Shown one piece after another: positions 38,243 to 40,933 of a stretch of DNA of 64,000 nucleotides (position 1 is the stretch's first letter; every line of letters starts with the position of its first letter). The notes beneath the pieces were generated by a model. That model made no database searches, was not told the origin of the DNA, and worked only from the letters and a program-made list of their open reading frames with translations. The position numbers and the translations under genes are program-made. Source of the DNA: an uncultured Verrucomicrobiae bacterium (GTDB lineage: Bacteria > Verrucomicrobiota > Verrucomicrobiia > Chthoniobacterales > JAATET01). The stretch covers positions 128,001-192,000 of the forward strand of contig CAVRCI010000004.1 in NCBI GenBank assembly GCA_963719495.1. Reading direction: 5' to 3'.

Positions 38243-38665
38243 CTATTTTTTCAAGGCGTCGCGGATTTGGGTTAGGAGGACGACTTCCTCCGTGGGGGCT
38301 GGGGGGGCGGGTTTGGGTTTGGCTTCTTCTTCGCGTTTGATGCGGTTGATGAGGCGGACGACGGTGAAGACGCAGAGGGCGACGATGAAGAAGGTGAGGA
38401 GGGTGTTGATGAATTCTCCGTAGGCGATGATGCCGAGCGGGCGGGCCTTCTCGATGTCGCTGGCTTGGGCGGCGGCTTCGGTGAGGGGGATGTAGAGTTC
38501 CTTGAAGGGGACCTTGGAAGTGATGAGGCCGATGGGGGGCATGACGACGTCGTCGACGAGGGATTTGACGATGCCGCCGAAGGCTCCGCCGATGACGACG
38601 CCGACGGCGAGATCGATGACGTTGCCGCGGGCGATAAATTCCTTGAATTCGGTGACGAAGCTCAT
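38243..38665 (-). CDS. mscL: Large-conductance mechanosensitive channel
   Basis: EFKEFIARGNVIDLAVGVVIGGAF, YGEFIN, LLTQIRDAL. Confidence 0.96.
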   Translation of the reverse strand: MSFVTEFKEFIARGNVIDLAVGVVIGGAFGGIVKSLVDDVVMPPIGLITSKVPFKELYIPLTEAAAQASDIEKARPLGIIAYGEFINTLLTFFIVALCVFTVVRLINRIKREEEAKPKPAPPAPTEEVVLLTQIRDALKK

Positions 38666-38680
38666 GGGCGGCGGTTTATG

Positions 38681-39751
38681 TCAGGTTTCGTAGCGCTGGG
38701 CCATCGCTTTTGCGGCGGCGGCGATGCGGCGGCGGAGGGCGGCGGGCCGGAGGACTTCGGCGTGGGCGCCCCAGCCGAGGATCCAATTCTCGAGGTCGGG
38801 CGCGGGGGAGACTTCGATCGTGAGGTCGGCGGTGCCGTCGCGGCGGTGGTGGATTTCCTGGCTGGTGTGCCATTTTCGCTCGGCGGCGAGGCGGGAGGCG
38901 AAGGCGTCGAGGCGAACGGTGATGGTCTGAACCTCGGCGGTCTGGAAGGCGGAAAAGCTGCCGGCAAACATGTCGCTGACCGAGAAATCCGCGGGGCGCT
39001 CGAAGGTGTCGCCGGTGGTCGCGACGGCGTGGAGGCGGGCGATGGCGAAGGTGCGGAGGGCGTCGCGGTCGACGTCGTGGCCGATGAGATACCACTGGTT
39101 GGCGAGGCAGCCGAGGTGGTAGGGGCGGACGTGGCGGCGAGCGGCGGCGGGTCCCTGGAGGGATTGGTAATCGAAGTGGACGGTGCGGCGGTGGAGGACG
39201 GCTTCGGCGAGGGTCTGGAAGGCGTCGAGTTCGGTGACGGCGACGCCTTGGGGGCGGAACGAGATGGCGTCGGTGAGTTCGTGGAGGGCGATGCCGCTCT
39301 CGCCTTCGAGGCCGGCGGCGAGTTTGGAGAAGGCGGACTGGAGGGGACGCTCGAAGGCGGTGCCGCGGTATTGCTCGACGGCTTTCTGGGCGATGAGGAG
39401 GGCGACGAGTTCGCCGTGGCTGACTTGGACGGTCGGGAAGCTAGTGACGGATTCCGTGTAGTGGAAGCCGTGGGCGACGCGGTCGTAGGCGATGGGGAGA
39501 TTGAGCTGGTCGCGCATGAAGTCGACGTCGCGCTGGATCGTCTTGGGAGCGACTTCCATCGTGCGGGCGAGGCGCTGGCAGTTGGGATACGAGCCTTCGC
39601 GGAGGAGATTGTGGATGCCGAGCATGCGGGCCAGTGGCGGGCGCGCGGTGGGGGACAATTTCGCCGGTCGGCGATCCTCCCGATTAAACGTAACGGCCGT
39701 TACGTTTAATCGGGGGGGATCGAGGGAATTTTTTTTGGATTTCTTTGGCAT
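38681..39751 (-). CDS. HTH-WYL-WCX transcriptional regulator (YafY/PafB/DriD family)
   Basis: LARTMEVAPKTIQRDVDFMR (HTH), RHVRPYHL, QWYLIGHD..RDALRTF..ARL, WILGWG..AEVL.P. Confidence 0.93.
   Translation of the reverse strand: MPKKSKKNSLDPPRLNVTAVTFNREDRRPAKLSPTARPPLARMLGIHNLLREGSYPNCQRLARTMEVAPKTIQRDVDFMRDQLNLPIAYDRVAHGFHYTESVTSFPTVQVSHGELVALLIAQKAVEQYRGTAFERPLQSAFSKLAAGLEGESGIALHELTDAISFRPQGVAVTELDAFQTLAEAVLHRRTVHFDYQSLQGPAAARRHVRPYHLGCLANQWYLIGHDVDRDALRTFAIARLHAVATTGDTFERPADFSVSDMFAGSFSAFQTAEVQTITVRLDAFASRLAAERKWHTSQEIHHRRDGTADLTIEVSPAPDLENWILGWGAHAEVLRPAALRRRIAAAAKAMAQRYET
39679..39714. repeat. Perfect 36-bp palindrome inside the 5' end of the WYL gene
   Basis: CCCGATTAAACGTAACGG|CCGTTACGTTTAATCGGG. 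Confidence 0.95.
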
Positions 39752-39773
39752 AGGACCACGGATGTCCTATGCC
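39747..39773. promoter_or_regulatory. Candidate WYL operator GGCATAGGAC-N7-GTCCTATGCC, followed by a -10-like TAGGGT (39780-39785)
   Basis: Perfect 10-bp inverted repeat with a 7-bp spacer, overlapping the WYL start codon. Confidence 0.7.
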
Positions 39774-39794
39774 CGGCGGTAGGGTGGGTCCAGT

Positions 39795-39950
39795 ATGAAA
39801 AACCTATCCGCTCTCTTGAAAGCGCTCCGGCCCGCCGGTGCGGTGTATCAACAACTGGAACTGCCCCTCTCCGGGCGCGAACTCACCCGGCGCGAGTCGA
39901 CGTCGCTCGAGCGGTTGCGGAAGCTGCGTCAGCGAGTGGCGATGCTGTGA
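39795..39950 (+). CDS. Uncalled 51-aa protein with a clamp-binding-like motif (QQLELPL)
   Basis: MKNLSALLKALRPAGAVYQQLELPLSGRELTRRESTSLERLRKLRQRVAML*; divergent from WYL, just downstream of the operator and -10. Confidence 0.6.
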   Translation: MKNLSALLKALRPAGAVYQQLELPLSGRELTRRESTSLERLRKLRQRVAML

Positions 39951-40081
39951 GGGGATGTTGGCGATGAGGGGGACCCTGGCTGGCGCGGTGACTCGCCGGG
40001 CGGGGTCTCCTTGCGTCGACCCTTACCAGGCCCAAGTTTTTCGGCTTTTGCATTTTCCCTTGATTCCGCGATGGTCGGTGG

Positions 40082-40933
40082 ATGAACCGACGGCGATTTC
40101 TACGGACGGCGGCCGGCCTGGCTCTCGGTGGTGGGCTGGTGGCACGAGCGGCTCGGACGGAGTCGTCGGTCTCGCGGGCGGGCGAGCGGGTGACGTTGGG
40201 AGCGACGGGGATCGAGGTGTCGCGGTTGGCGCTGGGGACGGGGTCGAACGGCTGGAACGGGCGGTCGAATCAGACGCGTCAATTGGGGATCGCGGGGGTG
40301 GCGGATCTTTTGGAGGAGGCGTTCGAGCGGGGGGTGAACTTCTGGGACGCGGCGGATCAATACGGGAGTCACCCGAATCTGGCGGCGGGATTGAAGCGGG
40401 TGCCGCGCGAGCAGGTGGTGATCCTGACGAAGTCGACGTCGGAGGACGCGGCGGGGATGCGGGCCGACATTGATCGATTCCGGAGGGAGTTGGGCACGGA
40501 CCGGATCGACGTTCTCCTTCTGCACTGCAAGACGAGTCCGAATTGGGTCGAGGAGTGCGCGGGGGCGATGGAGGTAATGAGCGACGCGAAGGAGCGGGGG
40601 ATCATCGGCGCGCACGGGGTGTCGTGTCATTCTTTCGCGGCGCTGGAGCTGGCGGCGCGGACGGATTGGGTGGACGTGGACCTGGCGCGGATCAATCCGG
40701 CGGGGGCGGTGATGGACGCGTCGCCGGAGCGGGTGCTGCCAGTGCTGGAGCGGATGCACGCTGACGGGAAGGGCGTGATCGGGATGAAGATCTTCGGCGC
40801 GGGGAAGTTGGTGAACCGGATGGACGAGTGCTTGCGCTACGTGATGGGGCAGGCGTGCGTGCCGACGTTTTCAATCGGGTGCGAGAGTCGGCGGGAGCTG
40901 CGCGAGGTGATGGCGGGGATCGAGCGGGCGTGA
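40082..40933 (+). CDS. Tat-exported aldo/keto reductase
   Basis: NRRRFL Tat signal, LGATGIEVSRLALGT, DAADQYGSH, GVSCHS, MKIFG. Confidence 0.9.
   Translation: MNRRRFLRTAAGLALGGGLVARAARTESSVSRAGERVTLGATGIEVSRLALGTGSNGWNGRSNQTRQLGIAGVADLLEEAFERGVNFWDAADQYGSHPNLAAGLKRVPREQVVILTKSTSEDAAGMRADIDRFRRELGTDRIDVLLLHCKTSPNWVEECAGAMEVMSDAKERGIIGAHGVSCHSFAALELAARTDWVDVDLARINPAGAVMDASPERVLPVLERMHADGKGVIGMKIFGAGKLVNRMDECLRYVMGQACVPTFSIGCESRRELREVMAGIERA

Follow-up and report, generated by a model that had tools for sequence, protein, structure and literature searches.

What does a WYL regulator control when its gene begins inside a perfect inverted repeat and faces, on the other side of that repeat, an open reading frame (ORF) of only 51 codons? 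The question is raised by a locus in a 64-kb stretch of DNA, called here the window, from an uncultured Verrucomicrobiae bacterium (assembly GCA_963719495.1, contig CAVRCI010000004.1, positions 128,001 to 192,000); the genome searched, G000, comprises 4.54 Mb. A sequence-only reading of the window had proposed a DNA-damage module, in which a DriD-like regulator induces a micro-protein that competes for, or modulates, the sliding clamp DnaN. This interpretation was supported by our analysis, no refuting result having come out of the computational tests. On balance we lean towards a two-gene module in which a WYL activator responsive to single-stranded DNA (ssDNA) or to DNA damage would switch on a clamp-binding micro-protein that slows or re-programs replication. 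The type of regulator is known; the effector is the new part. The features of the locus are collected in Table 1.

Table 1. Features at the WYL regulator and small ORF locus, in positions of the window.
Feature	Position	Strand	Evidence or remark
Small ORF, 51 aa, isoelectric point (pI) 11.6	39795..39950	+	Conservation; AlphaFold2 secondary structure
Codons for QLELPL (aa 20-25), candidate beta-clamp-binding hexapeptide	39852..39869	+	Invariant motif
Candidate operator, GGCATAGGAC-N7-GTCCTATGCC; core ATAGGAC-N7-GTCCTAT at 39750-39770	39747..39773	.	Perfect inverted repeat
T-rich tract directly 5' of the box; possible UP-element-like contact of the C-terminal domain of the RNA polymerase alpha subunit (alpha-CTD)	39729..39746	+	A/T runs
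-10-like hexamer TAGGGT	39780..39785	+	9 nt past the GTCCTAT half-site, 9 nt before the ATG
WYL regulator gene, 356 codons	38681..39751	-	Pfam WYL 1.5e-18, WCX 5.1e-18
Layout of the WYL protein			Disordered Lys-rich N-tail 1-37, winged helix-turn-helix (wHTH) 39-98, three-helix bundle 112-163, WYL 172-250, WCX dimer domain 275-355
mscL	38243..38665	-	Pfam MscL 3.2e-42; 15 nt past the WYL stop, same strand
42-nt palindromic repeat in the WYL N-tail	39676..39717	.	21-nt arms, 95% complementary; in frame; outside the module

The small ORF is a real gene under purifying selection. It was found where the sequence-only reading had placed it, with QQLELPL as residues 19-25 of its product, and the conservation on which the proposal depended was observed both in relatives and in protein collections (95 clusters and 39 representatives, described below). 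Among 41 genomes of the same order, searched in all six frames, 19 contain it at E <= 2e-5, including 15 of the 16 genomes of the same family, and in all 19 the frame is open and without stops. Loci were compared at 18 of these 19, from 18 genomes (G016 was left out). The product has 51-54 aa at all of them except in G004, which has lost the stop, so that its frame extends to 103 aa. The 18 loci share the pattern MKxIxxLLKSLR...YQQLELPLSGRxLTRxE...LRRLRExLA, and QLELPL, G27, L30, L41 and R45 are invariant in the 17 sequences that were aligned. QLELPL is identical at 18/18 loci and its codons vary synonymously (CTG/TTG/CTC/TTA; GAA/GAG; CCC/CCG/CCT), indicating that the constraint acts on the protein and not on the DNA. 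Nor is the motif freely variable in the wider family, in which distant members keep positions 1, 2, 4 and 6. The most distant members carry QMELPL, QMEFPL, QLEFPL, QLELSL, QLELQL, QLELNL, QLELKL, QLEFAL or QLELPF; across the family position 1 is Q, position 2 L, M or I, position 4 L or F and position 6 L, position 3 is E with few exceptions, and position 5 varies freely.

The micro-protein family is small and confined to one lineage. When 5.8 billion clustered proteins were searched with a profile, 95 clusters of 42-95 aa were returned, all named 'hypothetical protein' at source and originating from metagenome-assembled genomes (MAGs) of Terrimicrobiaceae or Chthoniobacterales. Only 39 members came out of an exhaustive HMMER search of 1.84 billion representatives, in which the peptide had no homologue beyond its own small family. 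Pfam, NCBIfam and PADLOC contain no family for the 51-aa protein, and the ESM Atlas returned for it only unnamed clusters (0.80-0.83, under the lead level). Using the 17-row peptide alignment, a further profile search yielded 14 loci, 13 of which come from Verrucomicrobiota MAGs; those of the 13 that were checked by contig coordinates coincide with small-ORF loci known already. The fourteenth match is a fragment of the peptide gene on a 467-bp contig with 0.72x coverage in the assembly of a Corallococcus (myxobacterial) isolate, most likely a contamination and not a transfer. The effector is an undescribed micro-protein family of Chthoniobacterales, and both the family and its pairing with a WYL protein are absent from the literature searched: QLELPL did not occur in full-text searches, and nothing relevant turned up when clamp, small protein, DNA damage and WYL were searched for together.

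The clamp is suggested as the target by the motif and by structural models. AlphaFold2 predicts two helices in the peptide, a short one at the N-terminus (aa 3-10) and an amphipathic, basic one at the C-terminus (aa 32-50), with residues 11-31 lacking secondary structure between the two. QLELPL is within this linker, an exposed unstructured segment, and has the QLxLxL form of clamp motifs. It differs only at position 3 from QLSLPL of Hda, described as a tight clamp-binding motif (PMC12309361, part of the text available). The motif class is written QL[SP]LPL, with QFKLPL in Caulobacter HdaA (PMC3836487, likewise a partial text), and the motif of Pol IV is QLVLGL (PMC6204406). Hda/HdaA and Pol IV thus share with the micro-protein a Q-L-x-L-x-L hexapeptide and, in our model, the same cleft, but there the motif is appended to a large enzyme or to an AAA+ protein, whereas here a protein of 51 aa has it at its centre and possesses no further known domain.

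The clamp binding put forward in the sequence-only reading was examined in complex models of the peptide with the genome's own DnaN (alignments of 46 rows for the peptide and 24 rows for DnaN). Three runs scored 0.69, 0.69 and 0.68, versus 0.00 in all three controls; the runs share at least 77% of their contacts, and the partner has a predicted local distance difference test (pLDDT) value of at least 55. Peptide residues 16-26 contact DnaN residues 171, 173-176, 243-248, 280-283, 323, 347, 349 and 361-369, that is, the cleft between domains II and III. In E. coli the clamp pocket is lined by S346, M362 and R365 (PMC6204406). The mark used was reached in a benchmark by 116 of 157 solved complexes and by 2 of 215 mismatched pairs, a calibration that is only rough here since our own alignments were supplied. 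As many clamp-peptide complexes have been solved, such a result speaks for a likeness to clamp motifs and not for binding as such. The 51-aa protein probably plugs the sliding clamp.

Upstream of the gene, the arrangement described in the sequence-only reading was confirmed: 43 nt (39752-39794) separate the divergent start codons, a perfect repeat extends over the WYL start, and TAGGGT precedes the small-ORF ATG at 39795. The arms of the repeat (39747-39756 and 39764-39773) have 10 nt each, are 100% complementary and are 7 nt apart, and the CAT at 39749-39751 is the WYL ATG. The DriD site had been given in that reading as ATACGAC-N7-GTCGTAT, correctly according to the accessible portion of PMC10853764, which prints the consensus ATACGAC(X)7GTCGTAT and describes G2 and C4 of each half-site as conserved and contacted by arginine. 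The candidate operator resembles it in sequence as a 7+7 palindrome with a 7-nt spacer that keeps G2, A3 and C4, and differs from it by one base per half-site, C1 being G here.

A scan of the genome for ATAGGAC-N7-GTCCTAT gave one site at up to 2 mismatches in 4.54 Mb, while at 3 mismatches the core pattern is not rare in 64 kb (at least one match in 44 of 100 shuffles of the window). There are 60 GGAC-N7-GTCC sites in the genome, and both 5-nt flanks match only at the operator (10/10; next best 6). The uniqueness of the exact site places the repeat beyond chance, and the decisive observation is that repeat, hexamer and ORF are kept in register at 18/18 loci from 18 genomes. A regulon beyond this operator was rejected, because there is no second site at up to 2 mismatches and no other GGAC-N7-GTCC among the 60 has matching flanks. 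A half-site-plus-hexamer match at C13:459768 was judged to be chance, its position being the 3' end of a 479-codon ORF beyond which no gene begins.

The upstream regions of the 18 loci align without gaps as T-rich tract, GCAT-N-GGAC-N7-GTCC-N-ATGC, 7 nt, hexamer, 7-12 nt and ATG. GAC-N7-GTC is present in all of them; 14 have a perfect GGAC-N7-GTCC, and the other 4 deviate from it by one base. The hexamer, whose forms include TAGGGT, TAGAGT, TAGTGT, CAGAGT and CATAGT, carries A as its second and T as its sixth base and stands at a constant distance from the box at every locus. No -35/-10 pair for sigma-70 was found within 39500-40200, and the -35 position (39757-39762) is the centre of the repeat. 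The short distance from hexamer to ATG together with the lack of a Shine-Dalgarno sequence implies a leaderless or near-leaderless mRNA for the small ORF. At 18/18 loci, A/T runs are found in the 25 nt or so that precede the box and may, by analogy with the DriD mechanism (PMC13004042, from the text available in part), serve the alpha-CTD. Read on the other strand, the T-rich tract provides the Lys codons at the start of the WYL N-tail (MPKKSKKN); one stretch apparently is both promoter-upstream DNA and coding sequence at all 18 loci.

This geometry is that of DriD-activated promoters. According to cryo-EM work (PMC13004042, partial text), DriD boxes keep a single distance to the -10 and overlap with the -35 position, and their promoters are without a good -35. 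When we aligned by the box the three DriD promoter fragments given in the part of its Methods that was available, a hexamer with A at position 2 started, in our own reading, 10 nt after the box, as TAGGGT does here.

The regulator is a relative of DriD and not its orthologue, as judged from sequence. Its AlphaFold2 model (mean pLDDT 70) shows the DriD order of domains, wHTH, three-helix bundle, WYL and WCX, in one polypeptide, and like DriD it is a single-gene WYL regulator (PMC9186387; PMC10853764 and PMC13004042 in their available parts). The best Foldseek matches are the DriD chains 8tp8, 8tpk and 9pfv (E 8e-16 to 7e-14, about 330 columns), with PafBC, CapW and BrxR ranking below them (E 6e-9 to 5e-8 for CapW and BrxR). 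By sequence, the nearest phmmer matches are PafBC 6sj9 (4.9e-18) and PafB (2.8e-13), and DriD reaches just 7e-5. Thus, the earlier description of the regulator as DriD-like held for fold, box and promoter geometry, but not for sequence, which is nearer to PafB/PafC. phmmer does not align the wHTH with that of DriD, in which Arg37, Glu40 and Arg41 contact the bases, and a phmmer search of the PDB with the wHTH alone gave nothing meaningful (E 1.5).

An alignment of the C-domains shows that four ssDNA contacts of DriD are kept (Tyr168 = Y195, Arg178 = R206, Tyr192 = Y221, Arg204 = R233) and that two aromatic ones are exchanged (Tyr240 to F269, Trp206 to F235); four further contacts, named below, are lost. 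A nucleic-acid pocket is plausible on this alignment. The protein is the sole match to the WYL domain (PF13280) in the genome, which excludes a heterodimer of the PafBC type. In 17/17 loci, its ATG (39751-39749) shares the reading frame of the conserved body (RPPLARML...); there, 17-41 codons separate the upstream stop from the conserved RPP motif, and in 10 of the 17 the ATG in the left arm is the single ATG, GTG or TTG on offer. Since the frame is kept at every locus in spite of the variable length of the N-tail, and in 10 of them no other start exists, the regulator truly starts within the repeat. The synteny that the sequence-only reading had proposed to check was also found, the WYL gene being the divergent neighbour of the small ORF in 17 of 18 loci.

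In the mechanism towards which we lean, a WYL homodimer of the DriD/PafBC type would bind the palindrome ATAGGAC-N7-GTCCTAT and, once activated by its ligand, would recruit RNA polymerase at a promoter having only the -10-like hexamer; such recruitment is suggested because the palindrome overlaps the -35 position and the promoter itself lacks a -35. The divergent 51-codon gene would then be switched on as a leaderless or near-leaderless mRNA. The ligand, by analogy, would be ssDNA arising after DNA damage, and the operator, placed over the start codon of the regulator, would probably limit WYL expression too. The basic micro-protein would insert QLELPL into the hydrophobic cleft of DnaN domains II/III and compete with polymerases and other clamp clients for this shared site, so that replication would be slowed or re-programmed while the damage is handled. 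DNA binding by the WYL protein is predicted, and the box-promoter geometry argues for activation rather than repression; a replication checkpoint would be the presumed outcome. A more elaborate version, which we regard as possible but tentative, is a p21-like checkpoint in which the ssDNA-sensing activator would have a single target and the leaderless 51-aa protein would pair via its basic C-terminal helix, plug both client-binding clefts of DnaN and evict the replicase and clients until the signal fades.

Several points weigh against this mechanism and must be taken into account, including those raised with the first three rival explanations below. Damage induction of the small ORF is supposed purely by analogy. 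The WYL regulator has 16-18% identity with DriD and is closer in sequence to PafB and PafC. Four ssDNA contacts of DriD are lost (Arg176, Arg207 and Lys202 replaced by Ala, Arg288 by Pro), and two of these, Arg176 and Arg207, belong to the six residues called conserved by the DriD authors (Tyr168, Arg176, Arg178, Tyr192, Arg204 and Arg207; PMC9186387). A lexA-like gene is present elsewhere in the genome, which leaves the SOS independence of the response without support. As the WYL ATG lies within the operator, the position of the WYL promoter is unexplained. Moreover, WYL orthologues (46-56% identity) exist in 9 further genomes in which the small ORF was not detectable.

The near-invariant Glu at position 3 and the conserved C-terminal helix go beyond what a plain cleft plug explains, and imply a further role for the protein. 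It could be a clamp adaptor, tethered to DnaN by QLELPL and using the basic C-terminal helix to bring a second partner or DNA, for instance a repair factor at stalled forks. This helix (LTRxE...LRRLRExLA) is conserved as strongly as the motif, is confidently predicted (helix pLDDT 84-91) and makes no confident contact with DnaN in the model; the family has a pI of 10.2-12.0, and in one genome (G019) the gene faces uvrC. However, no partner was identified, there is no conserved third gene at the locus, and 51 aa offer little surface for a second specific interaction. We consider the adaptor rather unlikely, if still worth keeping in mind.

The placement of the operator invites another explanation, that the WYL dimer represses both divergent genes in the manner of BrxR or CapW and is released by its ligand, with the micro-protein still acting on the clamp. 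WYL regulators with palindromic operators beside their own gene, such as BrxR and CapW, are often repressors. Here the operator overlaps the start codon of the regulator itself, which would suit repression of at least the WYL gene, BrxR and CapW, which have palindromic operators, are also structural matches, at the E values given above, and the regulator is matched by WYL models of PADLOC. However, these models are only generic ones and none matches the small ORF; DriD and PafBC outrank BrxR and CapW in both fold and sequence; the promoter of the small ORF has no -35 that could be occluded; and the distance between box and hexamer equals that of DriD-activated promoters. BrxR and CapW sit beside phage-defence systems, whereas the WYL gene here adjoins none, its neighbours being mscL and an aldo/keto reductase gene. 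Repression is thus an unlikely mode of action for this regulator.

QLELPL might also be no clamp motif at all, and the protein might act on another target, such as the WYL regulator in a feedback, RNA polymerase, or the divisome as DidA and SidA do. Strict motif strings do arise by chance: QLxLPL or QL[SDE]LF has 15 matches in six-frame ORFs of at least 45 aa in the genome, mostly in ORFs that are unrelated or spurious. Six of the 15 were checked by Pfam (a radical-SAM protein, a TPR protein, a glycosyl hydrolase, an amidase, an AmiA-like protein and one without family) and included no classical clamp client, hence they give no calibration of the motif. Many clamp-peptide complexes have been solved, so the complex model can pass through likeness to clamp motifs alone, which is not binding. 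In addition, the Glu that is nearly invariant at position 3 is not needed in clamp motifs, and the known effector of DriD, DidA, is a division inhibitor (PMC10853764, available part). Nevertheless, fixed positions 1, 2, 4 and 6 with a free position 5 are the pattern of QLxLxL clamp motifs, and the controls with unrelated partners scored 0.00. DidA and SidA are small hydrophobic membrane proteins, whereas this protein is very basic and has no membrane segment: its highest 19-aa Kyte-Doolittle window is 0.45, and the values range from -0.62 to 0.58 over 46 family members. A target other than the clamp therefore seems doubtful to us.

Finally, it is very improbable that the repeat is mainly an RNA hairpin in the WYL 5' leader hiding the AUG for translational control, for although any WYL transcript spanning it would fold a 10-bp stem over the AUG (-18.6 kcal/mol, z -2.1, 7 of 200 shuffles as stable), such a hairpin is an unavoidable by-product of any palindromic operator, specific bases (GGAC/GTCC and the flanks GCAT/ATGC) and the 7-nt spacer are conserved beyond what pairing needs, one base separates the sequence from a known WYL operator, and G019 keeps the box beside the small ORF with no WYL gene behind it.

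The two-gene activator module that we favour can be set against known systems. The closest is DriD of Caulobacter, whose gene faces a small uncharacterised gene, CCNA_03891, across a DriD box; DriD activates CCNA_03891 and not itself (PMC13004042, in the part available). At both loci the box is near the regulator start and over the -35 position of the divergent, -35-less promoter of a small gene. The first five codons of didA and CCNA_03891 read MTDFA and MTRFA in the fragments contained in the available portion of that paper, and from these five codons only, CCNA_03891 may be a paralogue of DidA. The systems differ in that the box at driD is 10-17 nt upstream of the start codon and here overlaps it, and in that DriD has several targets (didA, bapE, recJ, dnaG) whereas a single site was found in this genome. 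The effector of DriD is a membrane division inhibitor; here it is a soluble basic protein with a clamp motif.

PafBC of mycobacteria and other actinobacteria is the best match in sequence and is likewise an ssDNA-activated WYL activator at -35-less promoters (PMC11804915, available in part). However, it reads a single -26 element and, in the same partial text, does not bind promoter DNA without RNA polymerase. It is also a heterodimer or a fusion of two paralogues, whereas one 356-aa WYL protein faces a symmetric palindrome here.

Brakes on replication that are directed at the clamp exist elsewhere. Caulobacter SocB, the toxin of a toxin-antitoxin pair, and p21-PCNA of eukaryotes are examples; both resemble the proposed module in concept only, having no sequence relation to it, and neither is a WYL-controlled micro-protein. 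UmuDC is controlled by LexA and doubles as Pol V. The E. coli UmuD2C complex is alike in concept, as a stress-induced protein on the beta clamp that holds replication back (PMC4045847, as far as its text was available), but again differs in lacking any sequence relation and in not being a WYL-controlled micro-protein.

Around the module, the block conserved in relatives consists of mscL, the WYL gene and the small ORF. mscL adjoins the WYL gene in 15 of 17 relatives' loci and may be cotranscribed with it; no functional link is evident, and mscL is outside the mechanism claimed here. An operon of the small ORF with the downstream aldo/keto reductase gene was rejected, this neighbour being kept in 1 of 17 relatives, several of which have convergent genes. 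In G019, which belongs to another family, the module is split: uvrC lies opposite the small ORF with its box, and the WYL orthologue, found on a different contig, has dnaX opposite it; uvrC and dnaX are both genes of DNA repair or replication. Variants of the arrangement occur with more distant WYL orthologues, among the 9 genomes in which the small ORF was not detectable. In G028 box and hexamer are kept and a different 60-codon ORF follows, with no peptide; G031 keeps the box and lacks the peptide; and in G037 a degenerate box is accompanied by a 40-codon ORF whose N-terminus is partly similar and which reads QTEFHW in place of the motif.

The palindrome in the WYL N-tail is a small dispersed repeat, which has lengthened the tail in this genome only, the tails of relatives being shorter. 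Its 31-nt core has an exact copy at C9:130125 of G000 and copies with one change at C2:194791 and C5:62126. Two further genes outside the window were observed. A genome of the same genus carries a second dnaN-like gene (G002:C4:1274411-1275484), with 31% identity to the main DnaN and 36 kb from the small ORF. In G000, the gene at C5:25156-26235 encodes a 360-aa radical-SAM protein ending in QLELF, a consensus clamp pentapeptide at the C-terminus, and from its sequence this protein may be an unrecognised clamp client.

To our knowledge, only in Caulobacter (DriD) and actinobacteria (PafBC) have WYL-driven damage responses been worked out in detail, and we know of no bacterial micro-protein that has a clamp hexapeptide as its main conserved feature together with a dedicated stress regulator. 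The module has only two genes and one operator and should thus be easy to rebuild in vitro. If the p21-like version is true, the micro-protein family would have evolved in nature as a peptide that inhibits the bacterial sliding clamp. If the protein binds as modelled, it would also provide a natural peptide scaffold against the pocket of a validated antibacterial target. The DriD-type box, the promoter geometry and the layout of a regulator facing a small effector would extend to Verrucomicrobiota, which suggests that this design is old and widespread. Binding as modelled would also give direct experimental access to a question of long standing, namely whether bacteria put a brake on replication at the clamp after damage, as p21-PCNA does in eukaryotes.

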